Position numbers and translations under genes: made by a program
NCBI GenBank assembly: GCA_024654575.1
Contig: JANLHG010000005.1
Span: 1,260-65,259 of the forward strand
Length of the DNA: 64,000 nt
Direction: 5' to 3'
From: Patescibacteria group bacterium
GTDB lineage: Bacteria; Patescibacteriota; Minisyncoccia; Phycocordibacterales; PALSA-1337
In this document: positions 5,780-51,876 of the stretch, piece by piece
How positions within the stretch are numbered: the first letter of the stretch is position 1
Layout: the number at the start of each line of letters is the position of its first letter
Notes under the pieces: generated by a model
The model's input: the letters and a program-made list of their open reading frames with translations, nothing else
Told to the model about the DNA's origin: nothing
Databases searched by the model: none

Positions 5780-7018
5780 TCAATAATTCTTTAGCAACTC
5801 TAAAGCCTTATTCATTTGTGGGTCAATTTTCTTATCTATATCAGTCTGAGATATTTTAACTTCATAATCCGGCTTTAAACCTCCTTCAGAAATGGAATTA
5901 CCTTTTGGAGTAAGCCACCTTGCGACTGTTACTTTAAGAGACGTATCTGAAGTTATAGGAACAAGTTCTTGAACAGAACCTTTACCAAAGGTTTTCGTAC
6001 CAACTAACTTGACAATACCATGTTCTTGTAATGCACCTGCCAAAATCTCTGATGCTGAAGCCGAACCTCCATCAACTAAAATAATAAAATGTAAATTAGA
6101 AAAAACATTATATCCCCTACTTCTGTATATTTTATCATCACCGTTTTTACCAAAATCTTCAGTCACAACAATTTTTCCACTTGGTAAAAACCAACTCGCC
6201 ATGTCCACCGATGCTTCAAGATAACCTCCTGGATTACTACGAAGATCTAAAATCAGTTTTTGGGAACCTGATTCATAAAATTGTCTCAATGCATTTCTAA
6301 ACAGGTCAGGAGAATTAGCAGAAAAACTATATAATTTAATTACAAAAACACCATCTTTTCTTAATTCGGTGTCAATAGTTGGTAAATCAATAGTATCTCT
6401 AGTTATTTTGACATCAAACGGTGCTTTTATACCTTCACGAAAGACATTAAGAGTTACTATAGTCCCCTTTTTACCTCTAATGAAACTAACCGCATTATCC
6501 GTAGACATGTCAATTGTACTGGTAGCATTTATTTTAACAATTTTATCTCCCACCTTAATTCCAGCCTTTTCGGCAGGACTACCTTTCAAAGGAGCGACTA
6601 CTGTTAATATTTGGTCTTTCAGAGCAATCTCCATTCCAACTCCTTCAAAATTCCCAGCGATATCACTTTCAAATATTTTTGATTCTTTAGGAGGAAAAAA
6701 AACTGTATAAGGGTCACCCATTGAGCTAGCTAGTCCTTGCATAGCACCCCAAATTCTCTCTTGATCATTTGGAATTGGTTTTGAAGAAACATATTTTTCA
6801 GTTAAAATTGACCATTCTTTCCAGAATGGAGAAAGGTCTACAGAATTTATATTTGCAACATTTATTCGGTTTTTAGAACCAGCATAAGCACCGGCCATAA
6901 ATACCAAACCTAAAATCACCATCGCCACCACTACTGACGAAACATATTTCAAATATTTATTATTCATAAGTAAAAATATTATATCATATGCTATAATATT
7001 TTCTATTATGGTCATCAA
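5780..7018 (-). CDS. ctpA: Carboxyl-terminal processing protease (peptidase S41, CtpA/Prc-like) with PDZ domain
   Basis: Has an N-terminal TM segment and a PDZ-like region (GIKVGDKIVKIN). The S41 catalytic region is LRSNPGGYLEASVDMASWF. Confidence 0.85.
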   Translation of the reverse strand: MMTIIENIIAYDIIFLLMNNKYLKYVSSVVVAMVILGLVFMAGAYAGSKNRINVANINSVDLSPFWKEWSILTEKYVSSKPIPNDQERIWGAMQGLASSMGDPYTVFFPPKESKIFESDIAGNFEGVGMEIALKDQILTVVAPLKGSPAEKAGIKVGDKIVKINATSTIDMSTDNAVSFIRGKKGTIVTLNVFREGIKAPFDVKITRDTIDLPTIDTELRKDGVFVIKLYSFSANSPDLFRNALRQFYESGSQKLILDLRSNPGGYLEASVDMASWFLPSGKIVVTEDFGKNGDDKIYRSRGYNVFSNLHFIILVDGGSASASEILAGALQEHGIVKLVGTKTFGKGSVQELVPITSDTSLKVTVARWLTPKGNSISEGGLKPDYEVKISQTDIDKKIDPQMNKALELLKNY

Positions 7019-8345
7019 ACTTCACAACACATTGTCTGGAGAAAAAGAAGAATTTAAACCTCTCAATGAAGGAAAGGTTGGTATTTATAATTGTGGACCA
7101 ACAGTTTACGATATTGCACACATAGGAAATCTCAGAACTATGGTTTTTTATGACATTATCAGAAGAATATTTGAATATAATGAGTATAAAGTAGAACAAG
7201 TGATGAATATTACAGATGTTGATGATAAAACAATCCGTAAAAGTATCGAAGAAAAAATAACACTCACTGAACTAACAGAAAAATATGAAAAGCTTTTTTT
7301 TGAAGATATTGAAAAACTCAATATTATTAAACCACAAAAAATACTTTCTGCCAGAGCACATATGTCAGAAATTATAGAACTTATATCAACACTAATTAAA
7401 AATGGTTCAGCATACGAAGCGAGTGACGGAATCTATTTTAAAATTTCAAATTGTAAAAACTACGGATTACTAGCTAGATTAAAATTAGATAAACCGACTC
7501 AAGAAAGAATAGAAAATGATGAGTATGATAAAGAAAACCCTCGTGATTTTGCTTTATGGAAGTTTTATAAAGAAAATGACGGAGATGCAGTGTGGACCGC
7601 GCCCTTCGGGCGCGGTCGCCCTGGTTGGCATATTGAATGCTCAGCTATGGCTATAAAATCACTAGGAGACACGCTTGATATCCACGCTGGTGGAAGTGAT
7701 TTGATTTTTCCTCATCACACAAATGAAATCGCTCAGTCAGAATCAGCAACTAGAAAAACCTTTGTAAACTATTGGCTTCATGGAGGAATGATGAATGTTC
7801 AAAGTGACAAAATGGCGAAATCAAAAGGTAATTTTCTAAAATTAAAAGAGTTAATTGAAGAAAAAATATCACCCCTCGCATATCGTTATTGGCTTCTTAC
7901 TGCACATTATCGAACACAAATTAATTTTACTTTTGAAGCAGTTTCAGCATCTCAAACCGCATTAATAAACTTTTGTAATTATTTTATGGCATTTGGAGAA
8001 AAAAGTGGTGAAATTGATATAGATTACAATAATAAATTTATTGACTTCATAAATAACGATTTGGATATGCCTAAGGCAGTAGCTCTGGCTTGGGAATTGA
8101 TTAAAGATAAAAATATTTCAAACGAAAACAAAAAAGCTACTCTATTAAAATTTGACGAAGTATTCGGATTAAAATTAAAAGACCTAAAAATTCCTGATAA
8201 TAATGAAGAGATACCAGAAGAAATCAAGTTTTTGATTGAAGAAAGAGAAAATGCCCGCAAAGCTAAAGATTTCAAAAAATCCGACGCCCTAAGGAGTGAA
8301 ATAGAAGCTAGAGGGTATAAAGTCAAAGATATACCCTTATCTTAA
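7008..8345 (+). CDS. cysS: Cysteinyl-tRNA synthetase
   Basis: YNCGPTVYDIAHIGNLRT contains the HIGH region. RPGWHIECSAM is the Zn/cysteine-binding motif. KMAKSKGN is the KMSKS motif. Confidence 0.92.
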   Translation: MVIKLHNTLSGEKEEFKPLNEGKVGIYNCGPTVYDIAHIGNLRTMVFYDIIRRIFEYNEYKVEQVMNITDVDDKTIRKSIEEKITLTELTEKYEKLFFEDIEKLNIIKPQKILSARAHMSEIIELISTLIKNGSAYEASDGIYFKISNCKNYGLLARLKLDKPTQERIENDEYDKENPRDFALWKFYKENDGDAVWTAPFGRGRPGWHIECSAMAIKSLGDTLDIHAGGSDLIFPHHTNEIAQSESATRKTFVNYWLHGGMMNVQSDKMAKSKGNFLKLKELIEEKISPLAYRYWLLTAHYRTQINFTFEAVSASQTALINFCNYFMAFGEKSGEIDIDYNNKFIDFINNDLDMPKAVALAWELIKDKNISNENKKATLLKFDEVFGLKLKDLKIPDNNEEIPEEIKFLIEERENARKAKDFKKSDALRSEIEARGYKVKDIPLS

Positions 8346-33792: not shown

Positions 33793-33813
33793 TTTGTGTG
33801 TTCTAGTTTCGTC

Positions 33814-34950
33814 TCAACCAACAAGTTTCCATAGAAGCTCAGTTCCTCCTTTGAAGACTTGGACTTCTCCGACTTTCTGCGGAACGACAAGCGCCCCGCG
33901 TTCGATCGTCATCATCTCCGAGCTCACTTCCATGCCATAAAGCGCGAGGAAGTTTTCGGAAAGGAACGGACCGAGATGTTCGAGTGCGTTGTCCTGGTCG
34001 AAGGTCATCGTGTAGAGCTCAACGGCCGAGGGAGCGGTGAAGATGCCAGCCGCACAGCCATAGCAGCGAGACTTTGCACTTTCATCGTGAGGAGCGGAAT
34101 CCGTTCCTGCTCCGAAGCGACGATTACCCGAAGTCACATACTGCCGGACTTTTGCACGATGCGTTTCGCGCTTCGGCACAGGCTTGCAGTAGTGGCCAGG
34201 ATTCATCCCACCCCAGAACATGGCGTTGCGATTAATCATCAGATGATGAGCAGTCACAGTCGCATGGATATCGTGATCGACTTCTGCGACGAAGTCGGCC
34301 GCTCGTCCATCGGTGAGATGTTCGAAGACCACCGGCAATCCTGGAAAGGACTTGAGGATGGGCTTGAGGTCGCGGTCCACGGAAACGCTCTCGCGATCGA
34401 ATTCGTCGACATCTTCCTCGACTGCTTCGAAGTGTCCAAGCAATGGGATTTTGTGTTTCTCCATCACCTCGAACACCGGATAGCGACCAAGAAGATTCTT
34501 CACGCCGTGCGCCGAGCCAGTGGTGCCACCCTGGCCTTTTTGATTGGCCATGTAGAGCTTCACCGCTCGCCAAACACCTTCTTCGAAACCGCGCACGACT
34601 TCTTCAGGATCGATATGATCCGTCAGATACAGCGTCATGCAAGGCACGAAGTCGTAATCCTTCTTCCAATACCATTCTTGTCCTTTCGGAGCATTAGTAT
34701 TGAAGCGTAAACTCGTCATAACTTGTTCGATCTCTTTACGGTAATCTTTCGCTTTTTCAATCGTCGTTACCGGGTCAGCAAGGTTTGGCATGATAATCGC
34801 CCCCGTTGCATGCTGTTTGAGTGTACACGGAAGAACGGTCTTGAGCATATCACCACTTCGAAGGTGAAGATGACGGTCAAACCATCGAGGTATTGTTACC
34901 GAGTTTTCTTTCATGAGTTTTCCTTTTTGATAAACGATGTGGGTTTCCAC
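33814..34950 (-). CDS. pyrC: Dihydroorotase, type II (E. coli PyrC-like); GC-rich foreign composition
   Basis: FDRHLHLRSGDMLKTVLP, AIIMPNLADPVTT, CMTLYLTDHIDPEEVVRGFEEGV, PLLGHFE, VVFEHLT, GTDSAPH and CYGCAAGIFTAPSA align motif-by-motif to E. coli PyrC. DNA is about 55% GC. Confidence 0.9.
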   Translation of the reverse strand: METHIVYQKGKLMKENSVTIPRWFDRHLHLRSGDMLKTVLPCTLKQHATGAIIMPNLADPVTTIEKAKDYRKEIEQVMTSLRFNTNAPKGQEWYWKKDYDFVPCMTLYLTDHIDPEEVVRGFEEGVWRAVKLYMANQKGQGGTTGSAHGVKNLLGRYPVFEVMEKHKIPLLGHFEAVEEDVDEFDRESVSVDRDLKPILKSFPGLPVVFEHLTDGRAADFVAEVDHDIHATVTAHHLMINRNAMFWGGMNPGHYCKPVPKRETHRAKVRQYVTSGNRRFGAGTDSAPHDESAKSRCYGCAAGIFTAPSAVELYTMTFDQDNALEHLGPFLSENFLALYGMEVSSEMMTIERGALVVPQKVGEVQVFKGGTELLWKLVG

Positions 34951-35780
34951 GGAGTCCGCAGATGAATTGCACCGAAGCCGATCGCTTTCGCGCCGAGCCT
35001 CCTAAGCTTTTCCATGTCTTCGAATTCCATGATACTTGGACCGATCACAGGAAGCGATCCTTGTTTAGCGAGAGCTTCGACTGCCGCCCAGTTGTGTTTC
35101 TGTGCCGGTTTGCCGGAGACGCCTCCGCCTCCACCACCGACTTGTTTTTCGAGCTTCGCTAAAGGGGTCTGCCCGCTGTTAGTAAAGACCGTCTTCCACG
35201 GCACGCTGTTGAGGGAAACCGCTTCCGCGATTCCGACAAGTCCGCGTGCAATAGTGAGATAGTCCTGATCAGCCGAGACTTTGACGATTACGGGGTGACG
35301 CGAAGCGCGTTTGACCGCCTTCACACTATTCACCACCATTTCTGCCTGTTCGATTGCATGGCCAGTATTCGGACACGAGACGTTGACTTCAAGCGCAACG
35401 ATATCGAAGCGATTGAGCATCTCCGCCATTTCCACCAGTTCCTTTTCATCGCCGAAAATTGATCCGGCTGTTGGGAACTTTTTGAAATCGAGTTTGGGAC
35501 CGACTTCTCGGCACCACCACTCGACACCAGGATTAGTGAGCCCAACTTTATTGACCGCTCCGCCTGGAATCAGGCGAACGCAGGTCCAAGGCTTCCACCA
35601 TCGTAGGTTTCCGATACGCGGGTTGCGCGTCAGAGATTTGATGACTACAGTGAAGAGTTCGGGCTTGATGAGACCGAGCCACACCAGTGGCCGTTCCCAA
35701 GGCCAGCCCTTGCCATCAAAGGCAAGAGCGCCGCTTGCAACCATGTATTTGAACGCATGTCCGTTTGATAATGTGATCAT
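34911..35780 (-). CDS. pyrD: Dihydroorotate dehydrogenase, class 1 (Cys active site, PyrD 1A-like); GC-rich foreign composition
   Basis: Contains NKVGLTNPGVEW, ALEVNVSCPNTGH (NxSCPN), GGGGGVSGKP and a C-terminal GFGAIHL. It overlaps pyrC by 40 nt. Confidence 0.85.
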   Translation of the reverse strand: MITLSNGHAFKYMVASGALAFDGKGWPWERPLVWLGLIKPELFTVVIKSLTRNPRIGNLRWWKPWTCVRLIPGGAVNKVGLTNPGVEWWCREVGPKLDFKKFPTAGSIFGDEKELVEMAEMLNRFDIVALEVNVSCPNTGHAIEQAEMVVNSVKAVKRASRHPVIVKVSADQDYLTIARGLVGIAEAVSLNSVPWKTVFTNSGQTPLAKLEKQVGGGGGGVSGKPAQKHNWAAVEALAKQGSLPVIGPSIMEFEDMEKLRRLGAKAIGFGAIHLRTPWKPTSFIKKENS

Positions 35781-35870
35781 AGGATCTCCGTTTGTTGATC
35801 GTTTTAAATGTTCATTTCCATTCTGACATTACCTTATCTCAAAGTTATTTAATAGTAAAGATATGTTATA

Positions 35871-40437: not shown

Positions 40438-40449
40438 AAAAACATTATC

Positions 40450-40836
40450 TCATATTTCTTGAAAATTGGTAATAGTTGGATTATTTATATCTGAAATATC
40501 CAAAGTGGCGGTAAAGGTCGTAAAACTTCTGGATACAACCGACGTTGCCGTGATGATGCGACTATTACCACTTTCTGTAATGCTCGTTATTGAACAAGAA
40601 CCATTAGGAATTGAAATAACTTCTGGAGAACTTATAGAATAATGCGAATCCTGAATAATATGAAGAAAACCGTATTCCAGACAGGTTTCAGCAAAATACC
40701 TGCTTTGAAATTTGTCTCTGGATTGCATTCTTTCGGTTCGTAAAGTGAATAATGAAAGAACCGAGCCTACACTGACCGCCAACAATATGGCGGATACTAT
40801 AATCACAACAATCAATGTCGCAAATCCTTTTTTCAT
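40450..40836 (-). CDS. Pilin-like / minor pilin
   Basis: MKKGFATLIVVIIVSAILLAV is a prepilin-like N-terminus. Confidence 0.55.
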   Translation of the reverse strand: MKKGFATLIVVIIVSAILLAVSVGSVLSLFTLRTERMQSRDKFQSRYFAETCLEYGFLHIIQDSHYSISSPEVISIPNGSCSITSITESGNSRIITATSVVSRSFTTFTATLDISDINNPTITNFQEI

Positions 40837-41243
40837 AGCCTTGTATATCTAATTACACTAAAATTTATTTTATTGATACTAAAAGAAACTTTTACCCATG
40901 CCGGAGCGTTTCCACTCTTTCCGTGTTCAACCACAAAATCTTTCACTTCTATTAAATCACTAGCAAAAATTTTGGCATCAATATCATATGTTATACCATT
41001 ATTTTTTAAACTTAATGTTGTAGAAGTGGCATTCAATACAGGGATATAAACAACATCTGCACCAAGTAAAAGATATCTGATTTTACCTATTATGAAATCG
41101 CCCTCTTGAATAGCAAAAATATCGTTATCGTGACGATTAAAATTTGAAAGCAATGTATAAGATGAATTTACTAAACCAATCAAAAGTACAGATAGTAGTC
41201 CGATATAAATAATGGTTTCTATTAAGGTAAATCCTTTTTTCAT
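40833..41243 (-). CDS. Prepilin-type N-terminal cleavage/methylation domain protein (minor pilin)
   Basis: MKKGFTLIETIIYIGLLSVLL. Confidence 0.65.
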   Translation of the reverse strand: MKKGFTLIETIIYIGLLSVLLIGLVNSSYTLLSNFNRHDNDIFAIQEGDFIIGKIRYLLLGADVVYIPVLNATSTTLSLKNNGITYDIDAKIFASDLIEVKDFVVEHGKSGNAPAWVKVSFSINKINFSVIRYTRL

Positions 41244-42514
41244 TGTGGTGTGATAATTTTTAAGGCATTATTATCTTCAAATGCTATATAAACAACATCT
41301 TCATCGCAATCAATAGCTACAGCTTTTGAAGAAAAATCTAAACTAGAAACTAGAGAAATTGAAGCTGGATTTAAAACAGAAAGAACTTGCAGTTTTTTGT
41401 TTGTGGTAACCAAAAATGCTAGATTTTTATCGCCAACAATATCGTTTATACTTGAACCGATACGATACGAACCAAGTTTTTGTGGAGTGGTGCTGGAAGT
41501 ATCTAAAACAAAAAAATCTCCTCCAGTTGTATGCCCTAGATATGTCGTCGTCCCTACAGAATAGATACTCTTACCAGAATTGTTTGCCTCGCTAAAACCA
41601 CTTACTTGTGTGATATTTGAAAAATCGCTTATATCCAGAACCTTTAATTCTTCATTATTCGGACTAGCTTCATACAAAATATTTCCTTTTACATTCATAG
41701 CATTTATAGTTGTGTTCGCTTCCCAATTCCCTATTTCAGTTGGATTATAGACATCTGAGACATTAATAATATGGAGCTCACTTATTGAACTTTTTGGAGT
41801 ACCTAGATAAACTTTTTTCTTTGAATAAAAAATACTATTAGCATATAGACCGCTATAAGTCCCGGGTAATTTATAAGAAGAAACAATAAATGGATTATAC
41901 GGGTCTTTAATATTTATAATTTGTAATTGAGCATTTGTACTTGAATTGCCAACATAAGCATAATCACCAGCCACAGCCAAAGCTACTAACCCAGGACCAG
42001 TATCTATTTTTGAAATAATATCCGGATTTTGAGGATTCGAAACATCAACAATAAAAAAATCTTCTTTATTTTGAACGGCAGAATCAGCTGTCACATAAGC
42101 ATAGCTTCCTTGATTGATCACATCCGTAGCAACAATATCGGTTGTTGTGCTGGTATCCAAAGTGATTTCACCAACAATTTTTAGATTAGACCAATCGTCA
42201 TTAAATGAACAATTTTTATATCCTCGAGCATTTCGCCAATCAATAACACGAATAGTAAAATCATCTTTATTTACATCTTTAGTAATATCATCAATATCAT
42301 TTGCAATAATAGAATTAAAATCTATCCTTCCTTGTACTATAGTATTTTCCAAAAATTCTTCCGTTTCTGAATCAATTTCAACACTATTTTTCATATCAGC
42401 CATAGTCTTATCGGTAACATAATAGAGATTTATTAATGCACCAAAAGAAATAATTAATACCGAAAAAGCGATTAAAATCTCTAGAGTTATAGAACCTTTA
42501 TTGTATTTTTCCAT
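41240..42514 (-). CDS. Pilin-like N-terminus fused to a beta-propeller with LVIVD-type repeats; candidate pilus-tip adhesin
   Basis: The N-terminus GSITLEILIAFSVLIISFG is prepilin-like. Repeated units of the form …YAYV…IVDVSNPQNP…, …YAYVGNS…IINIKDPYNP… and …IINVSDVYNP… follow. Confidence 0.55.
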   Translation of the reverse strand: MEKYNKGSITLEILIAFSVLIISFGALINLYYVTDKTMADMKNSVEIDSETEEFLENTIVQGRIDFNSIIANDIDDITKDVNKDDFTIRVIDWRNARGYKNCSFNDDWSNLKIVGEITLDTSTTTDIVATDVINQGSYAYVTADSAVQNKEDFFIVDVSNPQNPDIISKIDTGPGLVALAVAGDYAYVGNSSTNAQLQIINIKDPYNPFIVSSYKLPGTYSGLYANSIFYSKKKVYLGTPKSSISELHIINVSDVYNPTEIGNWEANTTINAMNVKGNILYEASPNNEELKVLDISDFSNITQVSGFSEANNSGKSIYSVGTTTYLGHTTGGDFFVLDTSSTTPQKLGSYRIGSSINDIVGDKNLAFLVTTNKKLQVLSVLNPASISLVSSLDFSSKAVAIDCDEDVVYIAFEDNNALKIITPQ

Positions 42515-42827
42515 TTGAGTAGATTGTCATAATTTCTGAACGACCATTTTTTGAAAAAATAACTTCAGTCGTAGAAGAAACATTAGCACTGACCCTATCA
42601 AAAACGCCATGAGAAACATTATCAATATTATTAAGTGATTGACTTCGTGATTCCTGAATAGAATTTATAAACAAAACTTTTTCTTTATTAAATTCATAAC
42701 GATTATATGAACTTATAGTAGCGACTAAACCAATACTTCCGATTACAGATAAAACAGAAAGAGAGATGAGTACTTCAATAAGAGAAAATCCACGCATATT
42801 ATTGATGTAAATTTTGGGTAATAGCAT
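42498..42827 (-). CDS. Prepilin-type minor pilin
   Basis: MRGFSLIEVLISLSVLSVIG. Confidence 0.65.
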   Translation of the reverse strand: MLLPKIYINNMRGFSLIEVLISLSVLSVIGSIGLVATISSYNRYEFNKEKVLFINSIQESRSQSLNNIDNVSHGVFDRVSANVSSTTEVIFSKNGRSEIMTIYSNGKIQ

Positions 42828-43833
42828 AGATCGGCGAAATCACAGCAACTGCAATAAAACCAACACTTAAACCTATGATAATCATAAGTATTGGTTCAAT
42901 GGAACTTGATAAATTTTTAGTAATTTCATCTACTTCTTTTTCATAATATTCAGAAATATACAAAAAAACATCTGATAAATTTCCAGCTCTTTCACCTATG
43001 GCTGTCATATCAGAAACCATTGGAAAAAATATTTTTGGATATAGTGCAAAATGAGTAGAAATTTTTTCACCACGAGAAACAGCTTCTGACACTTCAATTA
43101 GTTTTTCTTTATAAATCGGATTAGACAAAGTTAAACCTGTAACTGCTAACGACTCACTCAAAGTTATCCCGCTTTTTTGTAAAAGTCCTAGAGTTCTACA
43201 TATATTTGCTATCATAGCGTATTTAATTATTTGAGAAATTAATGGGATATAAAGAAAAAAAGAGTAAAATAAAAATCTAACACGATAATATTTTTTACAT
43301 AAAAACCAAATGATAGTTGGTATAAAAAGCACAAAAAATAAAATAATAATCCAATAATGACTCACTAGATCACTAGTAAAAATTAAAATTTTAGTAGAAA
43401 AAGGTAATTCTCCATTAATACTTTTAAAAACAGGTAATATCTTAGGAAAAAGATAAACAGACATCATTAAACCAACAGCTAAAGCTGAAATTAAGATAAA
43501 AAACGGATAGATGAGAGCTGTTTGTATTTTTCGTCTTAAGGCATGTCGTTTCTTAAGTTCTTCTGCTAAATATTGAAGATTAGAATTTAATGTTCCACTC
43601 ATTTCCCCAACTTTAACAATGTGTATAGCAAAAGAATTCCATACACCTAAATTAGTAAAACCTTTAGAGAGTGAAAGTCCTTTAGAAACATCATCTAACA
43701 ATTTTTTCAAAATTATTTTATTTTTCTTCAATGCCTGAGACTGGAGCATACGCAAACTTTCTTGAAGAGTAATCCCCGAATTAAGAAGAAAAGCTAGGCG
43801 TTGGACAAAATTTATTTTATCTTCTTTATTCAT
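42799..43833 (-). CDS. pilC: Type IV pilus assembly platform protein PilC (GspF family)
   Basis: Two GspF-like repeats plus three TM segments. The gene is adjacent to the pilB ATPase. Confidence 0.85.
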   Translation of the reverse strand: MNKEDKINFVQRLAFLLNSGITLQESLRMLQSQALKKNKIILKKLLDDVSKGLSLSKGFTNLGVWNSFAIHIVKVGEMSGTLNSNLQYLAEELKKRHALRRKIQTALIYPFFILISALAVGLMMSVYLFPKILPVFKSINGELPFSTKILIFTSDLVSHYWIIILFFVLFIPTIIWFLCKKYYRVRFLFYSFFLYIPLISQIIKYAMIANICRTLGLLQKSGITLSESLAVTGLTLSNPIYKEKLIEVSEAVSRGEKISTHFALYPKIFFPMVSDMTAIGERAGNLSDVFLYISEYYEKEVDEITKNLSSSIEPILMIIIGLSVGFIAVAVISPIYAITQNLHQ

Positions 43834-45034
43834 GAATTATTCTTAAAACTTCTTCCACTGTAGTTAATCCTTGAAAAGCTTTTGATAAACCATCTTCCAA
43901 CATCGTTTGCATTCCATTTTTTATAGCAAGATTTTTAATTTCGCGAGCTGAAGATTTACGAACAATGGCATCTTTTATTTTATTATCAATTTGCATTACT
44001 TCGTATACGCCGATTCTTCCTCTAAAACCCGTATTTGCACATTTATCACAACCCTTTCCGAAATATAATTTTTTTATTTTTGTAATCTTTGGTTTTGATA
44101 AAATTTCCTTGAGTTTTTGTTTATCAATTTCCGTTATTTTTCTATCGTGAATACAATGCTCACATATTCTACGAACTAATCTTTGTGCAACAACAACACT
44201 AACAGTAGAAGCAATCAAATAGGCGTCAATTTTCATATCAAGAAGACGAGGTAATGTGGAAGCTGAATCGTTTGTGTGAAGTGTTGAAAGGAGCAAGTGA
44301 CCAGTAAGCGAAATATTCACAGCAATACGTGCAGTTTCTTCATCACGAATTTCTCCAACCATAATTATATTTGGATCTTGTCGCAACATCGCTCGTAAAC
44401 CTTTAGCAAAAGATAATCCTGTTTCTGAATTTATCTGTATTTGTTTTATTCCTTTAATTGAATATTCTATCGGATCTTCAATCGTCATCAAACATCTATC
44501 ACTTTTGTTTAACATTTGTATAAGCGTATAAAGTGTAGTTGTTTTTCCAGAACCTGTCGGACCAGTTACTAAAATCATTCCGTTCGGTTTATGAATAGCT
44601 TTAGTTATTGTTGTTACATCAATATCCCTCATTCCTAAATTTTCTAGTGTAAAATTTTCAACCTTTTTAGCTAAAATACGAAATACTGCATTCTCACCAT
44701 AATAAGTCGGCATAACTGAAATTCTTATATCAAGAAAACCACCAGTAATGGTGTCTATTCTAAATCTTCCATCTTGCGGAGTGTGGTGAACGTCGGTTCT
44801 AAGTCCAGCTAAAACTTTTATTCTTGAAATAATTTCTGAATGAATTATTTTTGGAAGAGTAAAAGAAGAAATTAAAACACCGTCAATTCGCAATCGAACC
44901 AAAATTTCTTCTTCTACTGGGTCAATGTGTACATCTGAAGCGTTTATTTCGTAAGCGTGTTCAATGAGATTTTGAACTAAATCAATGATAGAAATATTCC
45001 TACCTTTCGCCAATTCCGCCTCCACTTTTGTCAT
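43826..45034 (-). CDS. pilB: Type IV pilus assembly ATPase PilB/GspE family
   Basis: Walker A is GPTGSGKTTTLY. The C4 Zn motif is CEHC…CDKC. An Asp box and His box are present. Length is 402 aa. Confidence 0.85.
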   Translation of the reverse strand: MTKVEAELAKGRNISIIDLVQNLIEHAYEINASDVHIDPVEEEILVRLRIDGVLISSFTLPKIIHSEIISRIKVLAGLRTDVHHTPQDGRFRIDTITGGFLDIRISVMPTYYGENAVFRILAKKVENFTLENLGMRDIDVTTITKAIHKPNGMILVTGPTGSGKTTTLYTLIQMLNKSDRCLMTIEDPIEYSIKGIKQIQINSETGLSFAKGLRAMLRQDPNIIMVGEIRDEETARIAVNISLTGHLLLSTLHTNDSASTLPRLLDMKIDAYLIASTVSVVVAQRLVRRICEHCIHDRKITEIDKQKLKEILSKPKITKIKKLYFGKGCDKCANTGFRGRIGVYEVMQIDNKIKDAIVRKSSAREIKNLAIKNGMQTMLEDGLSKAFQGLTTVEEVLRIIHE

Positions 45035-45047
45035 AATATTCTTTTAT

Positions 45048-46220
45048 TTAATAATTCCTTAATCGGTTAATATTTTCGTGTTCGCGGATTTTATCATGTG
45101 CTTTGGCTTCAATTTGACGAATTCTTTCTCGAGTAACCCCAAATTCTTTTCCCACCTCTTCAAGAGTATGAGTAATACCATCAACCAATCCATGTCTCAT
45201 TTCAAGAATTTTTCTCTCCTTCAAAGATAAATCTCCTAAAATATCCTTGACCTGATCACCTAAAATTCTACGAGAAGAATCCTGGTCTGGAGAAAGAATT
45301 TTATCATCTGAAAGGAAATCACCGAGTGTTGATTTGTCTTCACCGTCATCACCAACAGGACTTTCCAAAGAAACTGTATCCTGATCTATTTTCTCAATAT
45401 TATAAATTTTTTCAACATCAAGTCCCATTTCCGTAGCGATTTCTTCCGCTAATGGTTCTCGTCCTAAATCTTGACTAAGTCGTCGCACCACTTGTTTGTA
45501 TTTTGCAATTGTCTCAACCATATGCACCGGCACACGAATAGTTCTTGATTGGTCAGCCAAAGCTCTAGTAATAGCTTGTCTAATCCACCAAGTAGCATAA
45601 GTTGAAAATTTGTATCCTTTAGTCCAATCAAATTTATCAACAGCTTTAAAAAGACCGAGATTTCCTTCTTGAATTAAATCAAGTAAAGTTAAATCTGGAC
45701 TTCGTCCAACATATTTTTTAGCAATAGAAACAACGAGACGAAGGTTTGCACGTGCCAGTAAATTTTTTGCTTCTTCTTCTCCTTTTTGAATTCTTTTTGC
45801 TAAATCTTTTTCAACCGAAGCCGGAACAAGCGGATATTGTCCGATTTCCTTTAAATACATTTGAATAGAATCATATGCTGAATCACTTTTACCATAACTA
45901 TACTTTTTAGAAACGGGTTCCTCAGGTTCTATATCTAAAATACCACCACCTTCAAGAATATCTACTCCAGCTTCTGCTAATTTATTATAGAGATCATCAA
46001 GACCATTTATATTTTCTTCAATCGTTGGAAAATCTCTTAAAATCTCATCATAAGTAACAAATCCCCTCTCTTTTCCTTTCTCAAGTAATTTTTCTGATTT
46101 TACACTAAACTCTTTAGCTTTACTTAAAACTGCTTTTTTAGGCCTAATCTTAGCCTTATTTTTCTTTTTTTTGATAACTTTGACCTTTTTTTTTGGAACC
46201 CTTTTTTTAGATTTCTTCAT
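45048..46220 (-). CDS. rpoD: RNA polymerase sigma-70 factor RpoD
   Basis: [24 protein letters not shown] is region 2.4/3.0. Region 4.2 is an HTH. A Lys-rich N-terminal tail is present. The gene sits in a dnaG-rpoD tandem. Confidence 0.9.
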
Positions 46221-46237
46221 ATGTAAGTAATACTATA

Positions 46238-47971
46238 CTATCTTTTCTTCAATAATTCAATACGAGATGATAACTCTTGACATTCCTCAAGAATTTTTAG
46301 TGCTTGTTCAGAATCTTTTTTCTTTTCTGCCGAAGCAAGTTCAAACATTTTTTTACCAAATAATTGTTTTAAATGTTCCAATTCAAAATTACACAAAAGT
46401 TCCTCAATTTCTTTTGTAAGATTTTTTTGATTTGAATAAGTTATTTCGGCTTGAAATATCATTTCGTTTTTTTCTGTCTCCAATATTTTTATATTTTCAA
46501 AAAAATCTTTTCCAAGCAAAGAAATTATTTTATTTTTAATTTCTTTTATGTCCAATGTTGGCTCTTTCATCTTTTCCTGCCAAAAAATTATACCTAGGAG
46601 TTTCCTATGTATAGAATTTTTGGGGCGATTATCTGCCCCGCCCGCTTGAGCGGGCGGGGCTATCATTTTCGGTATTTTTTTCAAATCTTCCCAAATAGCA
46701 TCTTCGCTAATCCCAGTTTTATTATGAATCGTTTTCACAAAATGTGATTGTTCCATATTACTTGATAAAACTGCAACGAGTGGAAGTACTTTTTCTTTTA
46801 TTCCTTTTGTTATTTTTAATTGGTCAGCTGTTTCTTTCACAATCCTATCTATATTAAAATCAATAATATTTTTTGAATTTTTGATAACATCTTTCCATTC
46901 AGTTGGATTAGCTAGTATAAAATCAGCGGGGTCTTTTCCTGATGGAACAGTAGCAATTTTAATATCCATTCCCAAAGAAAGTCCGATGATAGCTGACCGT
47001 TCGGTGGCATTAAGTCCAGCGTTATCAGCATCAAAAGCCAAAATCATATTATGAGAAAGTCGATTGATAATTCCAAGATTATTTACAGCATTTTCTCTCG
47101 TCATTAACGAATCAGTTAATGCCGTACCCGAAACCGCAACGGTATTTTTATAACCAGCTTGATGAGACATAATAAGGTCCATTTGCCCTTCCACTAAGAT
47201 TGAAAAATTTAATTTTCTAATATGACTTTTTGCCTTATCAATTCCATAAAGAACATTGCTCTTATTAAAAAGTTCAGTGTCTGGACTATTTAAATATTTA
47301 GCTGATTTGTCGTCATCAACTAAAATCCTACCAGAAAAAGCAATTACTCTTCCCCCACTATCCATAATAGGAAACATAATTCTGCCCCGAAAACGATCAT
47401 AATGGCCTGCCTGCGCAGGCGGGCCTTTTTCTGTTTTTTTAGTCAGTCCCACTTTTTCAATATCATTATCGCTATATCCCTTACTTCTCAAGTGGGTGTG
47501 TAATTTACGCCATTCATCTGGAATAAAACCAATTCTAAATTCTTTTATGGTTTTATCTACTAATCCGCGATTTTGAAGATATTTTTTTGCATCTGGATAA
47601 ATATTTAATAAACTTTCAAAAAACTTACATGCTTCTTCCATAATATTATAAAGCCGTTCTTTTTCTGTTTTAACCTGTGGATTTTCATGAATAATTTCCA
47701 CACCCGCCCGTCCTGCCAACATTTTCAAAGCCCCCATAAAATCCAACCCTTCAAAATTCTGCACGAATTCAAAAATATCACCTTTTGCTCCACATCCGAA
47801 ACAATAATAACTTCCCCGTTCAGGCGATACAAAAAAACTAGGAGTTTTCTCATTATGAAAAGGACATTTTCCTTTCAAATTCGCCCCCGCCCGCTCAAGT
47901 TTTATATATGATTCAACAACATCGACAATAGAAAGTCGCTGTTTTATTTGCTCTACGGTATTAGAAGCCAT
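46238..47971 (-). CDS. dnaG: DNA primase DnaG (contains two in-frame GC-rich palindromic insertions encoding PPAQAG)
   Basis: The Zn ribbon is CPFHNEKTPSFFVS…CFGCG. The Toprim region is ILVEGQMD…FDADNAG. Confidence 0.9.
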   Translation of the reverse strand: MASNTVEQIKQRLSIVDVVESYIKLERAGANLKGKCPFHNEKTPSFFVSPERGSYYCFGCGAKGDIFEFVQNFEGLDFMGALKMLAGRAGVEIIHENPQVKTEKERLYNIMEEACKFFESLLNIYPDAKKYLQNRGLVDKTIKEFRIGFIPDEWRKLHTHLRSKGYSDNDIEKVGLTKKTEKGPPAQAGHYDRFRGRIMFPIMDSGGRVIAFSGRILVDDDKSAKYLNSPDTELFNKSNVLYGIDKAKSHIRKLNFSILVEGQMDLIMSHQAGYKNTVAVSGTALTDSLMTRENAVNNLGIINRLSHNMILAFDADNAGLNATERSAIIGLSLGMDIKIATVPSGKDPADFILANPTEWKDVIKNSKNIIDFNIDRIVKETADQLKITKGIKEKVLPLVAVLSSNMEQSHFVKTIHNKTGISEDAIWEDLKKIPKMIAPPAQAGGADNRPKNSIHRKLLGIIFWQEKMKEPTLDIKEIKNKIISLLGKDFFENIKILETEKNEMIFQAEITYSNQKNLTKEIEELLCNFELEHLKQLFGKKMFELASAEKKKDSEQALKILEECQELSSRIELLKKR

Positions 47972-47995
47972 AGAGGTATTATACTCTTTTTTACT

Positions 47996-49459
47996 CTACT
48001 TCTCCAAATCTAAAATTTCATCAATACGGATTTGAGCGACAAATTCTGGAACATGGGAGACCAAAATCATTGCACCTTGATAGGTATTGAGTGCTTCAGC
48101 GATAATAGGCAAATGACGAAAATTAATATGATTAGTTGGTTCATCTAAAATAAGAAGTCCTGGTTTTTGGAGAACGAGACGAGCAAAAGCAACAAGACCT
48201 TTTTGCCCCTCAGATAATGCACCAATTTTGGTATTAATCATTTCGGAAGTTATTAAAAAATTTGCTGCAACCGCCCGAAATTCTTGTTCAATAATCCTTC
48301 CTTCAGTACTTTTTAAAACATCAACTAATGATTGATAAACAGTATCTTCAAAATTAAGTGTTGAAAAATCTTGACGATAATATCCGACGCGTATACCATC
48401 CGAGATAATAGCACCATCTGACTTTCCTTTTGCCAGTGCTTCAAGAAGAGTACTTTTACCAATACCATTTGGTCCTTTGATAAGTAAATGCTGATTTTTT
48501 CTTAAAGAAATACTAGTTTTTCTTATTGTTGGCTTATGATTTTTTATGACCTTAAAAGATTTAATATCAACAATAACCCCACCTAAATCTGGTTGAACTG
48601 ATATATTAAATGGTTTAATTGTCTTATCTTCTTTTCTTACATCCACCTTTTCCTCTTCCATTTCTATCGCTTTTTCACGCATACGTTTAGCAACGAGACG
48701 CATCTGCCCTCCTTTATTAGCGAAAAAGTTCGCCTTATCTTTATTCTCTTGAATTTCTTTTGCAAGTAATGCGTTTTTTCTATTTTCTTTATCAATTCGT
48801 GCCGAAATATCTTTGACCACATCAAAATAATTACCGACATATTGTTCAACCTTATGATTATACACATCTAAATATAGCACTCCATGTGTAAAAGAATTCA
48901 AAAAATCTGAATCGTGAGAAATCACAATCACCGTTTTTTTATAATCAATAAGAAATTGCGTAAGATGTTCAATTCCCGCCTTATCAAGATTATTTGTAGG
49001 TTCATCAAGAAGTAATAAATCAGGATCTTGAATTAATGCCGAGGCTAGTAAAAGTCTAGCCTGTTGTCCCCCAGAAAATGACCCTACAATTCTATCCAAA
49101 GGAACTTCAAGATTCACAACTTCAAGAATGGCGTTAATTCGTGGCTCAATATCATATTTTTTTTCAGAAAAACTTAATGCAAAAAATTCGAGCAAGTTTT
49201 TATCAAGTAAATCTCTAGGCATCACTTGCGATGTGAGTGCTACAGAAAATCCTTGAGCTATATTAATATTGCCAGACTCAGGTTTAACTTTTCCTGTAAT
49301 AAGTTTAAAAATAGTGCTTTTTCCGGCACCATTTTGTCCCATAAAAGTTATTTTACTTCCTTTACGTACACTAAAAGTAACCTCATCTAAAATGGGTTTA
49401 TTTGGACCATATTCAAAGGAAACTTTGTCAAATCTTAGGATGACTTCTTCTTTAGACAT
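47996..49459 (-). CDS. ABC-F family ATPase (tandem ABC domains, no TMD)
   Basis: Two Walker A motifs (GQNGAGKST and GPNGIGKST) and two LSGGQ signatures. Length is 487 aa. Confidence 0.85.
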   Translation of the reverse strand: MSKEEVILRFDKVSFEYGPNKPILDEVTFSVRKGSKITFMGQNGAGKSTIFKLITGKVKPESGNINIAQGFSVALTSQVMPRDLLDKNLLEFFALSFSEKKYDIEPRINAILEVVNLEVPLDRIVGSFSGGQQARLLLASALIQDPDLLLLDEPTNNLDKAGIEHLTQFLIDYKKTVIVISHDSDFLNSFTHGVLYLDVYNHKVEQYVGNYFDVVKDISARIDKENRKNALLAKEIQENKDKANFFANKGGQMRLVAKRMREKAIEMEEEKVDVRKEDKTIKPFNISVQPDLGGVIVDIKSFKVIKNHKPTIRKTSISLRKNQHLLIKGPNGIGKSTLLEALAKGKSDGAIISDGIRVGYYRQDFSTLNFEDTVYQSLVDVLKSTEGRIIEQEFRAVAANFLITSEMINTKIGALSEGQKGLVAFARLVLQKPGLLILDEPTNHINFRHLPIIAEALNTYQGAMILVSHVPEFVAQIRIDEILDLEK

Positions 49460-49499
49460 AGAATAAAAATAATACCTTATTTTTTGATATATGACAATA

Positions 49500-50885
49500 T
49501 TATTGCACTAAATACAAAGAAAGATCGTTTCCTTCATACAAAATTTTGGCCTGTAATTTTAATTGACTAGGTAAAATCAAATAGAATGGACGAGAGGTAA
49601 TTTTTTCGTCATAAGCTTGAGGTCTTCTACCACCACTATAGTAAGCAATAGTATCCCAGTAAGCGTGCATATGGATATAAATTGGCGTTGATGTGGAATT
49701 TTTATTCATAATTTCTCCCATACTTTTTTCTTGTTGAGCTAAATTTAAGCTTTGAGCAAAATAATTATTACCGAAACCAAAAGAAATATAAATTGTTACG
49801 ATAAAGGAAAAAATAAAGATTAGAGAATAAGTAAAAATAACAAAATCTTTATGTTTCAGATAAAACTTTTCAACAAAAGAAAGAAATGAATCAAATGATA
49901 ACGCAATAAAAATAGCAACGAAAGGATAAATTGGAATAAAATAATAAAGTAATTTTGTACTTGAAATAAAAAATACAAATGAAAGACAAATTATAATTGA
50001 TAGAAACAAAAGATGAACACGAAACATTTGCTTATATTTTTTCATAGCAATAAATATTCCAATCAGACACACGAAAAAAATAATAAACCACGGCTCATAA
50101 TAATTGATGAGATTCATTACATAAACAGCGTTAGTAGAAACACCTCCTAAAATATTTTCCTGAATTCTAACAAAAATAAATTTCATTATATAAAGGTTTG
50201 AAAATTCAATCGGATATTTTAACCATTCATAAATGTGCCACGGTAATCCAATAATTCCACCGAGTAATAAACCAAAATAAAAATTTCTATCTCGTAAATA
50301 ATTCCATTTTTTAAAAAATAAACTACAGAGAATGATAGCTGGGATGGAAAAAAATCCGATAACGCTTTTTGTCATAATCCCTAAACCTATTCCAACACCA
50401 ATTCCCATAAACCAACGTGGTTGTCTCAGACCTCTCAAAAAAGAATAAAATGAAAACAAAATAAATGCCGTTACTGGAACATCTAATCGTAATTGTCGTC
50501 CTGCTTCTAAAAACAATCCGGTAGTCAACAATATCAACATTGAAAGAATGGCTACACGCTTTTTACCTGTTATTTCATAAGCACATCCATAAACTAAAAT
50601 AAGGCAAAAAATCAACAATAATGAAGAAGGGAAACGCAAAATAAATTCACTAAAACCAAAAATCTTTACAAGTACTGTATCCATCCAAAATATCAAGGGT
50701 GGCTTATCAAACCAATTATTTCCACTCTGAGTTAGAGTAATATAATTTCCATTTTGGACACTTTCCTTAACCACTTGTGCATAAAATGCTTCATCATTAT
50801 CAATCAAAGGGTTATGTCCAAGCATAAAAAATGCCAAAAAACTTCCCAAAATTAAAATTACAAAAAATATTGAATTATATTTCAT
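49500..50885 (-). CDS. GT-C glycosyltransferase (family 39, ArnT/PMT-like)
   Basis: DNDEAFYAQVVKESVQNGNYITL…WFDKPPLIFW forms the DE…KPPL loop. Polytopic membrane topology. Confidence 0.7.
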   Translation of the reverse strand: MKYNSIFFVILILGSFLAFFMLGHNPLIDNDEAFYAQVVKESVQNGNYITLTQSGNNWFDKPPLIFWMDTVLVKIFGFSEFILRFPSSLLLIFCLILVYGCAYEITGKKRVAILSMLILLTTGLFLEAGRQLRLDVPVTAFILFSFYSFLRGLRQPRWFMGIGVGIGLGIMTKSVIGFFSIPAIILCSLFFKKWNYLRDRNFYFGLLLGGIIGLPWHIYEWLKYPIEFSNLYIMKFIFVRIQENILGGVSTNAVYVMNLINYYEPWFIIFFVCLIGIFIAMKKYKQMFRVHLLFLSIIICLSFVFFISSTKLLYYFIPIYPFVAIFIALSFDSFLSFVEKFYLKHKDFVIFTYSLIFIFSFIVTIYISFGFGNNYFAQSLNLAQQEKSMGEIMNKNSTSTPIYIHMHAYWDTIAYYSGGRRPQAYDEKITSRPFYLILPSQLKLQAKILYEGNDLSLYLVQ

Positions 50886-50912
50886 ATAAAACAGTATAAA
50901 TCTTATTCACCA

Positions 50913-50942
50913 AAATAAAAACTCCCTTTCGGGAGTTTTTAT
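50913..50942. terminator. Bidirectional Rho-independent terminator
   Basis: aaaactccc-tttc-gggagtttt is flanked by A and T runs. Confidence 0.6.
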
Positions 50943-50945
50943 TTA

Positions 50946-51020
50946 CTATCGTCGTCGCTTTGAAGTTTTCTTCTTAGCTGTTTTTTTTGTTTTCTTTACT
51001 GCTTTCTTTTTCTTTTTCAT
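50946..51020 (-). CDS. Candidate tiny poly-lysine peptide gene (24 aa: MKKKKKAVKKTKKTAKKKTSKRRR)
   Basis: Its own terminator lies immediately downstream and an AT-rich promoter-like region lies upstream. The ORF track's longer 65-aa version adds an unlikely hydrophobic N-extension. Confidence 0.25.
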   Translation of the reverse strand: MKKKKKAVKKTKKTAKKKTSKRRR

Positions 51021-51204
51021 AATATTGGAGTGACTGACAAAAAATATTATTTTTAATAAAAAGTATATAATAATTTTTCGACAAAAAAATATTACATTGA
51101 CTATTATCATTATGATGTATGTGTAAAATAAAAACAATACCAAAAAATAAAAAACTGTGTATAACTTTTTTATTTTTTAAAAAAGAAAATTAAATATTTT
51201 TGAA

Positions 51205-51238
51205 ATAAAAAATTGCGGAATTTATTCCGCAATTTTGT
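51205..51238 (-). terminator. Rho-independent terminator downstream of pyrE
   Basis: attgcggaa-tttatt-ccgcaat with a T-run on the minus strand. Confidence 0.6.
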
Positions 51239-51258
51239 GAAGATGTTTTTTCACTGCA

Positions 51259-51876
51259 TTATGCAATGATGTATTTCATCACCTCATCTCTCGTTTCTGA
51301 AGTGATTTTTTTCTTACCGACAAAGAACTCCAATGTTTCGCTGAGCTTGGCGACAGCGATAACCATTCGATCTTTATTTAACTCAATAAGCCCACCTTGT
51401 TCCCGATCGTACAAAACGAGGGTGGCGACTACTTCCAATCCATTCGCTTCGACTGATTTGATGGCTTCGCGTTTGGTATCGGCTTTGGTGATGAGGTCGT
51501 CAATCAACACAACTTTTTTACCTTTTTCAAAAGGATCTAAAATTGTGGAAGTGATATGACGACCTTCCTCATTCTCAACCTTTTGGATACGCAAATGAGG
51601 TTTACTTACAGCTTTGGCAAACGCTTTACCAATCGGCTCGCCGGCGTTGGGGATACCAATGACATAATCGAAGTCAGTAATTCTTTCCTGAACAACAAGG
51701 TCATGCAGAATATCTCCAGCTAAAGCGTAGAGCCATTCTGGCAATTCTCTGATGTTGAGATAAATCGGCGACAGTGGTGCCGTCGGATTTTTCTCGTGCA
51801 ATTTCAATCTGAAAGCACCGAACTTGATCTTTGCCAAATTGAGAAGACTCATATGGAGATACTCTTTTGCTTGCAT
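51259..51876 (-). CDS. pyrE: Orotate phosphoribosyltransferase
   Basis: The N-terminus is FGAFRLKLHEKNPTAPLSPIYLNIRE. The PRPP-binding motif is KKVVLIDDLITKADT. Length is 205 aa. GC is intermediate, about 45%. Confidence 0.75.
   Translation of the reverse strand: MQAKEYLHMSLLNLAKIKFGAFRLKLHEKNPTAPLSPIYLNIRELPEWLYALAGDILHDLVVQERITDFDYVIGIPNAGEPIGKAFAKAVSKPHLRIQKVENEEGRHITSTILDPFEKGKKVVLIDDLITKADTKREAIKSVEANGLEVVATLVLYDREQGGLIELNKDRMVIAVAKLSETLEFFVGKKKITSETRDEVMKYIIA

Follow-up and report, generated by a model that had tools for sequence, protein, structure and literature searches.

Why does the primase gene of an AT-rich bacterium carry GC-rich palindromes within its reading frame? The question is raised by a stretch of 64,000 nt from a Patescibacteria contig (JANLHG010000005.1 of assembly GCA_024654575.1), here called the window, which has a GC content of 33.5%. 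Its dnaG gene contains two GC-rich palindromes that both encode the peptide PPAQAG, as a preliminary description of the window had noticed. The palindrome at positions 47404-47425, called site 2, is the main subject of this analysis, and the other one is called site 1. The preliminary description had proposed that both belong to a specific element family that had been inserted into the gene in a fixed frame and orientation. The sequence comparisons reported here indicate that the 22-nt site 2 is a lineage-specific in-frame insertion of 18 nt in a surface loop of DnaG.

On the plus strand, site 2 reads ggcctgcctgcgcaggcgggcc and is followed by ctttttctgttttttt. As described before, it is in frame in dnaG, which is encoded on the minus strand and reads ...KKTEKGPPAQAGHYDRFRGRIMFPI... 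across the site. It had been called an exact palindrome, but only 10 of its 11 pairs are Watson-Crick pairs. T47408 is opposite G47421; the two form a G:T wobble on the plus strand, and the sense strand has C:A as a mismatch here. The folding energies were -18.2 kcal/mol (z = -3.3) for the plus strand and -14.5 kcal/mol (z = -1.75) for the sense strand. The two arms are built from tandem tetranucleotides, (CCYG)2/(CAGG)2. The T-run after the palindrome to which attention had been drawn is indeed present on the plus strand, but it does not appear to be a meaningful feature, as it represents the Lys codons of the native KKTEK motif and is not common to the insert family described below.

In the nearest outgroups (57–65% identity), the respective loop reads KKTE-KG-YYDRF and does not contain an insert, and therefore site 2 represents an 18-nt insertion that is specific for the lineage of the window. 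The proposal that the segment had been inserted was thus borne out. The boundaries are ambiguous because of a flanking GGC repeat, and positions 47408-47425 are equally possible as those given in Table 1. The preliminary description had also considered that PPAQAG might be a conserved native motif of DnaG, encoded by varying codons; however, the peptide was found in none of the 119 other DnaG homologues that were listed. In an AlphaFold2 model of DnaG with a mean predicted local distance difference test (pLDDT) score of 83, residues 181-190 at site 2 form a loop between the strands E177-179 and E190-192 with a mean pLDDT of 65. The sister lineage (loci L001/L002, 84% amino acid identity in DnaG) contains a different GC-rich insert at the same site, PARPDGGGG, the fold of which is not significant (z = -0.8).

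Sites 1 and 3 and the palindrome in cysS

Site 1 folds with -28.4 kcal/mol (z = -4.9), and its arms are also tandem tetranucleotides, (CCCG)2/(CGGG)2. It is located in a hypervariable, disordered linker that leads from the Toprim/RNA-polymerase core to the C-terminal domain, and residues 437-451 had pLDDT values below 50 in the model. When this linker was compared in 70 dnaG genes, the hairpin was found only in the lineage of the window and in its sister lineage, while the dnaG of L028 contains an unrelated palindrome of 53 nt at about the same position. The two lineages are so divergent that 55% of the four-fold degenerate sites differ between the window and L001. Nevertheless, the stems are perfect in both of them, i.e. 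GCCCCGCCCGC-TCAA-GCGGGCGGGGC in the window and GGCCCCGTTCGC-CGTG-GCGAACGGGGCC in L001. From the window to L001, a change of CC to TT is paired with a change of GG to AA, in addition to a change in the loop, and all third codon positions of the stem are conserved. The peptide, in contrast, is not conserved (APPAQAGGA versus APFAVANGA). Two assemblies that are independent of each other, ENA ERZ1758448 and GCA_038077855.1, agree in the alleles of the sister lineage.

The only other GC palindrome within a gene of the window is located in cysS. It covers the native conserved motif W-TAPFGRG-RPGWH of cysteinyl-tRNA synthetase and does not involve any insertion. In the respective locus of the sister lineage, L186, the stem shows a compensatory change of an A:T to a G:C pair, in which ACC is replaced by GCC (Thr to Ala) and GGT by GGC (synonymous). 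The cysS gene of L187 (63% identical) uses the AT-richer codons GAT GCG CCG TTT GGA AAA GGC (DAPFGKG) for the motif, and the hairpin is absent.

A third half-site, cgcccccgcccgctcaag, had been reported for the zinc-ribbon region at 47892-47909. It was found at 47882-47899, 10 nt away from these coordinates, and it turned out to be native zinc-ribbon sequence and not an insertion. Positions 47885-47899, called site 3, are the exact 15-nt reverse complement of positions 46645-46659, which comprise one arm and the loop of site 1 and are 1.2 kb away. Site 3 encodes the native, length-conserved LERAGAN, and its codons differ from those of the sister lineage (CTT GAT CGA GCT GGA) at 5–6 clustered positions; among 70 relatives, these codons vary freely. 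Site 3 has probably been generated by a templated multi-nucleotide conversion. The dnaG zinc ribbon of L063 (10058-10081; 54% amino acid identity) also encodes LERAGAN with the rare codons of site 3, GAG CGG GCG GGG GCG, and no matching palindrome was found in its 11.6-kb locus.

The palindromes of the window were also evaluated statistically. Three GC-rich palindromes of the window (cysS, dnaG site 1 and dnaG site 2) pass the thresholds of 11-nt arms with a minimum of 10 pairs and a minimum of 9 GC pairs, and not a single one was obtained in 30 first-order Markov simulations. A search with the consensus CCGCCNGCNCARGCNGGC and up to 3 mismatches retrieved only the two dnaG sites, which corresponds to 4 strand-hits versus 0.17 expected, and none of 100 shuffles reached this number. 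The statement that the palindromes are not random GC hairpins is therefore justified. The sequence CCGCCNGC does not occur anywhere else in the window. On the sense strand, the flank of site 1 reads ATGATA|GCCCCG and that of site 2 reads GAAAAA|GGCCCG.

Two candidate generalizations were rejected. A scan of metagenome contigs for GCCCCGCCCGCNNNNGCGGGCGGGGC yielded 99 matches, nearly all of them in contigs with a GC content of at least 58%, and none had the loop TCAA/TTGA. The exact site-1 palindrome is thus not a widespread repeat, and the matches in high-GC contigs are chance matches or terminators. The single match in a contig with 33% GC (L145, 218-285) is intergenic; there, the site-1 arms GCCCCGCCCGC-AATT-GCGGGCGGGGC are in tandem with a further hairpin, CCGCCGCCC-TGCG-GGGCGGCGG, which suggests that such hairpins also occur outside of genes in AT-rich organisms. 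The second candidate, a general role of dnaG as a hairpin hot spot, was only a weak effect, with 0.13 strong folds per kb versus 0.09 in other genes of 83 loci. GC islands were about 1.8-fold denser in dnaG, and many of those elsewhere are native G/P/A/R motifs.

Inserts in related genomes and the setting of dnaG

The site-2 loop was compared in 80 related dnaG loci, which are designated with L-numbers. In most of them, the loop consists of the 8 residues KKTEKG[YFM]. GC-rich hairpin inserts are present in scattered lineages (L072, L047, L077, L055, L035, L048, L062 and L001), and in a quick neighbor-joining tree each of these has a sister without an insert. The window and L072 have the same arms, GGCCYGCCTGC/GCAGGCAGG, but the right arm is read one frame off in L072 and yields GRQG instead of QAG. 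It is therefore the DNA and not the peptide that the two inserts have in common, and the claimed fixed frame is not universal. Together with site 1 and cysS, this case places the constraint at the nucleotide level rather than at the peptide level. Inserts were likewise found in a second loop of DnaG (IL.DDGKSA, before KYLNSP) in L041, L073, L062, L081, L051, L072 and L048.

Similar sequences recur at unrelated positions. A 13-nt core, CTGCGCAGGCAGG, read as xAQAG, is present in site 2, in a unique 15-aa insert at the C-terminus of the L054 DnaG and in a unique 12-aa insert in the L066 rpoC; variants are found in the rpoC of L082 (a 1-nt change) and in the dnaG of L062 (without the first two bases). 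A second group, CCTGCCCGCC...GGCGGG ('PAR..GG'), comprises inserts in dnaG of L041 and L001, in trmD of L042 and L039 and in gltX of L186, while no matches to its pattern above chance were found in the window. An identical insert of 21 nt (TPPGRGK) is present at one trmD site in L018 and L051, which are not sisters. The gltX gene of the sister lineage (L186, 3880..5226, minus strand) contains a 7-aa hairpin insert, PARQSGG, at about 4131-4157 (AAGCCTGCCCGACAGTCAGGCGGGGGC), which is absent from the gltX gene of the window. This insert and the site-2 insert of the sister dnaG have AAGCCTGCCCGAC...GGCGGGGG, i.e. 13–14 nt, in common. Hence, different family members occupy the same dnaG site in the two sister lineages, and each of them matches another copy in its own genome (in the window, both dnaG inserts are of the PPAQAG type). 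The grouping into an xAQAG and a PAR..GG group is loose, and the flanks of the inserts are repeats of 2–4 nt.

The inserts were quantified across 13 orthologue sets. Rare insertions with a length of 5 aa or more numbered 52; 42% of them were among the top 5% in folding energy, ranked against segments of the same length from the gene of the insertion, and 40% had a z value below -2. Among 38 inserts, 22 pairs had 10-mers in common, compared to 1.9 in composition-matched shuffles (maximum 7), and 6 pairs had 12-mers in common, compared to 0.16. Hairpin inserts were overdispersed among the genomes (P about 0.01–0.02). They have a GC content of 80–100% and a length of 18–27 nt in the window and of 18–78 nt in the relatives, and all of them are in frame and devoid of stop codons. 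The proposed specific element family was thus supported insofar as a family close to the previously given consensus is recognizable, its core recurs, and common k-mers exceed the shuffles more than 10-fold; only two copies, both in one gene, are present in the 64 kb to which the copy numbers for the lineage of the window refer.

One insert is a very recent gain and might disclose how insertion takes place. The dnaG genes of P0039 (L183) and P0024 (L184) encode proteins that are 98% identical, with about 96% identity at the DNA level. Only L183 contains a 24-nt hairpin insert at the site-2 loop, TCCGCTCCGCCAGTTGGCGGATGG (DPLRQLADG; L183:3552-3575), which is absent in L184. Four further close homologues also lack the insert, and therefore it has been gained. 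It folds with -19.5 kcal/mol, is flanked by GATG...GATG, and its arms consist of the tandem units (TCCGC)(TCCGCC)/(GGCGGA)(TGGCGGA), which resemble the adjacent native GGTGGA. This presence/absence polymorphism between close strains was thus seen for the insert of a relative, not for that of the window itself.

Additional long in-frame palindromes, perfect or nearly so, were found in the rpoB of L077 (1411-1457; 47 nt, -43.6 kcal/mol) and in the dnaG linker of L028 (1605-1657; 53 nt). These two and the palindrome in the dnaG of L048 are unrelated in sequence to the other inserts, and they look like de novo inverted duplications. A region of rpoC around aa 1007-1017 (L062, L018, L054, L060, L082) is an insertion hot spot with the GC-rich inserts PLRQSA, PLRRGASE and GGPLRHGGSEA; PLRQ is also part of the L183 dnaG insert.

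The product of the host gene matches, at 100%, a protein recorded as 'DNA primase [Patescibacteria group bacterium]', and the Pfam scan, which covered 4 proteins of the window, revealed the zinc ribbon (aa 3-95), DNAG_N (aa 123-248) and Toprim (aa 258-352) domains. The annotation of its relatives is Taylorbacteria, Nomurabacteria, Paceibacterota or a comparable group of Patescibacteria. All genes in the neighborhood of dnaG, from 39976 to 51876, are located on the minus strand. A scan with Rfam did not retrieve any family over dnaG, neither at the gathering thresholds nor with E values of up to 1. The coordinates of the features are summarized in Table 1.

Table 1. Coordinates and properties of dnaG, the palindromic sites and the inserts at the site-2 loop of relatives
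Feature	Position	Strand	Description
dnaG (DNA primase, 577 aa)	46238..47971	minus	host gene of the palindromes; from the open reading frame listing and Pfam domains
rpoD	45048..46220		downstream of dnaG
Site 2, 22-nt GC-rich quasi-palindrome	47404..47425	minus (dnaG)	encodes G-PPAQAG-(H); sense strand GGCCCGCCTGCGCAGGCAGGCC
18-nt in-frame insertion at site 2	47405..47422	minus	CCG CCT GCG CAG GCA GGC, between native ...KKTEKG and (Y/H)YDRFR
Site 1, perfect 11-12 bp GC palindrome	46635..46660	minus	GCCCCGCCCGCTTGAGCGGGCGGGGC; encodes APPAQAGGA; sense loop TCAA
Site 3	47885..47899	minus	CTT GAG CGG GCG GGG (L-E-R-A-G); native zinc-ribbon codons, no insertion
cysS hairpin, perfect 10-bp GC stem	7595-7617	plus	GACCGCGCCCTTCGGGCGCGGTC; in cysS 7008..8345; -25.9 kcal/mol
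L072 site-2 insert			GLPAGRQG; GGCCTGCCTGCCGGCAGGCAGGGA
L047 site-2 insert			SLPDGRQG
L077 site-2 insert			ATPANGQG
L055 site-2 insert			AAPAGGQG
L035 site-2 loop			insert present
L048 site-2 loop	10521-10598		78 nt, -49 kcal/mol
L062 site-2 loop			insert present

Two further regions of the window are unusual. An island of about 50% GC at 33800-35800 contains an open reading frame for a dihydroorotate-dehydrogenase-like protein (34911..35780, minus strand; PF01180) and a second one (33814..34950, minus strand) without a Pfam match; the island is probably horizontally acquired DNA. A GC-rich segment on the plus strand at 18105-18190, just upstream of the gene for tRNA-Asn (18259-18331), resembles at its start a tRNA 5′ half (CCGGCGTGGCGCAGCGGTAGAG...). 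It was called by neither ARAGORN nor Rfam and may represent a tRNA that is degenerate or interrupted, or else a different small RNA.

Formation and maintenance of the palindromes

The observations are best read as a loose family of GC-rich inserts of about 18–50 nt that occur sporadically in essential genes (dnaG, rpoB, rpoC, trmD, gltX) of AT-rich Paceibacteria-type Patescibacteria. We consider it an even prospect that this family of in-frame micro-palindromes is created and maintained by hairpin-mediated template switching, a process that has been described to create and maintain hairpins and to homogenize the arms of inverted repeats in coding DNA (PMC8794818, PMC8604942). During replication, the nascent strand would fold back or switch the template at a short GC-rich patch, typically at Gly, Pro or Ala codons within a Lys/Asp-rich loop. 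It would then copy its own complement or a nearby palindrome, and a hairpin with arms of tandem 4–6-nt units such as those of site 2 would be created or transferred. Later rounds of hairpin-templated copying would homogenize the arms and generate perfect stems via apparently compensatory multi-nucleotide changes, and similar native sequences, like site 3 and the cysS motif, could be overwritten in the same way. The survivors would be those that are in frame, free of stop codons and located in disordered loops, where they would be translated as harmless P/A/Q/G/R-rich loops. The pattern at the protein level would then arise because inserts survive only in such loops. Neither a primase-specific nor a regulatory function would be needed, and the insert looks like selfish or mutational DNA that has been written into a protein rather than like a feature of the primase.

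Template switching is favored because of the multi-nucleotide compensatory changes, the rewritten native motifs in cysS and at site 3, the unique long perfect palindromes and the arms built from tandem units. The tandem arms of 4–6-nt units, the compensatory changes and the converted native motifs agree less well with a classical mobile element than with hairpin-templated copying or generation de novo. Several points weigh against it. For site 2, a donor sequence that would prove a specific template switch was not identified. In classical template switching it is local sequence that is copied, and purely local events predict neither the strong GC-richness nor cores that are common to unrelated sites and genomes; a transferable element accounts more easily than independent local events for cores that are nearly identical at unrelated sites of distant genomes. 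The recurring xAQAG frame could be due to filtering or selection at the peptide level, and perfect stems at a saturated synonymous divergence could equally be due to selection for a functional hairpin. For the inserts of the Nomurabacteria type, repeated precise loss of an ancestral insert is conceivable. Furthermore, the window contains only two family copies and one converted half-site, all of them in dnaG, and in metagenomes the exact arms of site 1 were found nearly exclusively in high-GC organisms, with one intergenic match in an AT-rich contig.

An element that is mobilized in trans has to be taken seriously as a rival, since distant genomes contain nearly identical cores at unrelated sites, although we regard it as rather unlikely. 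It would be a non-autonomous family of ultra-short GC-rich palindromes that is moved by a hairpin-recognizing enzyme, e.g. a single-strand transposase of the IS200/IS605 type or the type linked to repetitive extragenic palindromic (REP) sequences (REP-associated tyrosine transposase, RAYT), with preferential insertion at Gly codons in A-rich loops and an occasional exchange among co-occurring Patescibacteria. The same 13-nt core at unrelated sites and genes of genomes with only about 52–55% identical DnaG proteins can be explained in this way, and the same is true for the identical trmD inserts in two non-sister lineages, the recurrence of 21-nt inserts at one and the same codon of dnaG in lineages that have insert-free sisters, the resemblance of the copies within a genome and the overdispersed insert load. 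Short direct repeats flank site 2 (GG/AGG) and the L183 insert (GATG), but they are only 2–4 nt long and ambiguous, and no target-site duplication was found. A mobilizing enzyme did not turn up, and transposases were not searched for. Inserts of 18–24 nt are shorter than any characterized transposable substrate, there is no other copy in the 64 kb, and many inserts are unique perfect palindromes without relatives that have a de novo look, like those of the L077 rpoB and the L028 dnaG. The insertion-free conversion of native motifs in cysS and at site 3 would also not be explained by transposition. A variant of this scenario, which is likewise doubtful, envisages an active family of GC-rich palindromic elements of about 20 nt that home to Gly codons in the disordered loops of essential genes and move by some hairpin-specific mechanism, both within and between genomes, with stems that are kept perfect by selection or by self-templated repair. 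No smaller 'protein-coding' mobile DNA would be known, and minimal genomes would continually obtain new loop sequences from it.

Selection for a nucleic-acid hairpin in dnaG or in a dnaG-rpoD operon is less strong as a rival, because the inserts occur sporadically and are not gene-specific and because the site-2 insert of the sister lineage does not fold significantly; we regard it as improbable. Such a hairpin might process or stabilize the mRNA, might cause a pause of translation between domains, or might act as an antisense intrinsic terminator on the plus strand. The perfect stems of site 1 and cysS, which were kept by compensatory changes at the high synonymous divergence, would fit this reading. 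On the plus strand, site 2 has a textbook terminator shape, with a stem of 9 pairs that is followed by TTTTTCTGTTTTTTT, and the G:T wobble makes the hairpin more stable on this strand than on the sense strand. Between 44 and 50 kb, 12 terminator-like sites were found versus 2.8 expected, which are mostly redundant calls on the two palindromes. However, most relatives lack site 2, the nearest outgroups among them, similar inserts occur sporadically in rpoB, rpoC, trmD and gltX, the T-run consists of native Lys codons and is absent after other family members, no Rfam family was matched, and a plus-strand transcript that would need termination is not evident in the region around dnaG. It is far less probable still that the peptide has been selected, i.e. 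that the primase of this lineage benefits from PPAQAG as a flexible motif of a loop or linker and that the palindrome follows from the complementarity of Pro/Gly and Ala codons. A single protein contains the hexapeptide at two places, and 4 of the 6 codons differ at the third position between them; five or six independent inserts agree in the frame in which xAQAG is read, and some lineages contain related loops (LPAGRQG and similar) at the same site. On the other hand, the motif is absent from the listed homologues, the peptide of site 1 has changed in the sister lineage while the stem has been preserved, the arms in common with L072 are read in a different frame, and the synonymous sites have retained rare GC-rich codons in a genome with only 33.5% GC. 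In addition, both sites are predicted to be disordered or have a low confidence, and the same sequences occur in unrelated proteins. Chance hairpins or an assembly artifact are effectively refuted. Low-complexity GC-rich sequences are easily alike and the genome is metagenome-assembled, but neither the simulations nor the shuffles reproduced the observation, the sister versions are identical in the two assemblies mentioned above, and the inserts are all in frame and stop-free.

Comparison with known systems

Full-text searches of the literature on the Candidate Phyla Radiation, Patescibacteria and Parcubacteria did not retrieve any description of in-frame palindromic inserts. If the interpretation given above is correct, the family would constitute an undescribed class of miniature palindromes in essential proteins (primase, RNA polymerase, tRNA enzymes) of the reduced, AT-rich genomes of candidate phyla, and its size range of about 18–50 nt would allow the boundary between 'mobile element' and 'templated mutation' to be examined directly. 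The sites with compensatory changes at saturated synonymous divergence would be natural test cases for the creation and upkeep of hairpins. Such a class would also show how proteins acquire new loop residues and how palindromes are tolerated in organisms with minimal repair. In practical terms, the inserts inflate the apparent divergence of proteins and yield false calls of terminators or motifs inside genes, and they could serve as strain-level markers in metagenomes.

Intrinsic terminators resemble site 2 in the GC stem followed by a T-run on the plus strand. Moreover, the site-1 arms GCCCCGCC...GGCGGGGC resemble intergenic terminator hairpins of relatives and the intergenic hairpin of L145. 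In contrast to terminators, the palindromes are located inside of a gene and in antisense orientation, the sense strand lacks a U-tract, site 1 is not immediately followed by a T-run, and no plus-strand gene is located upstream between 39976 and 51876. REP sequences and bacterial interspersed mosaic elements, which are associated with RAYT (PMC3733652), are also imperfect GC-rich palindromes of 20–40 nt that form hairpins in single-stranded DNA or RNA. However, REPs are extragenic, have tens to hundreds of copies, a GTAG/CGTC head and an associated RAYT gene, whereas all copies in the window are inside of dnaG and their flanks do not contain a GTAG or CGTC head.

Template-switch mutations (PMC8794818, PMC8604942, PMC5453318) also have features in common with the inserts. 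They create perfect stems in a single step and give rise to apparently compensatory multi-nucleotide changes like those at site 1 and in cysS; the clustered multi-nucleotide changes keep the complementarity of the arms at these two sites, and clustered changes are also seen at site 3. The inversion of spacers, the overwriting of a similar nearby sequence, as at site 3, and the action in coding DNA are further similarities.

The mobile GC clusters of yeast mitochondria are GC-rich hairpins of about 30–50 nt that are mostly intergenic and polymorphic between strains (PMC4478555). They are similar to the inserts in being short GC-rich hairpins in a very AT-rich genome, in their presence or absence in close strains, which was observed here for L183 and L184, in their occasional in-frame residence in a coding sequence (var1) and in an obscure mechanism of mobilization. 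In contrast to the inserts of the bacterial chromosome, the organellar GC clusters are numerous, mostly intergenic and fall into defined classes with characteristic flanks. The byp elements of Magnusiomyces mitochondria are related to GC clusters; they interrupt the reading frame and are bypassed by the ribosome. The inserts of Patescibacteria, in contrast, are multiples of three, stop-free and presumably translated.

Among the known systems, Rickettsia palindromic elements (RPEs) come closest to the inserts. They were reportedly described by Ogata and colleagues in 2000 and 2002 as 'protein-coding palindromes'. Like the inserts, they are palindromes that are GC-richer than their AT-rich host and are in frame in unrelated, often essential genes, and they are translated, are located at surfaces or loops without destroying the function, and are sporadic among relatives. 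Stable hairpins, in-frame insertions that are absent from orthologues and a surface or loop location were also observed here. RPEs, which are mentioned in passages of PMC10969869 and PMC1779305, differ in their length of about 100–150 bp, i.e. they are 5–8 times longer, and in dozens of copies per genome in well-defined families. The inserts of Patescibacteria, another host phylum, have 18–50 nt and form loose families, with 2 copies in the 64 kb of the window and two related copies, in dnaG and gltX, in the sister lineage, and native motifs have also been converted to palindromes without an insertion. If the interpretation is correct, the phenomenon that is represented by RPEs and by mitochondrial GC clusters would extend to a third, very large lineage.

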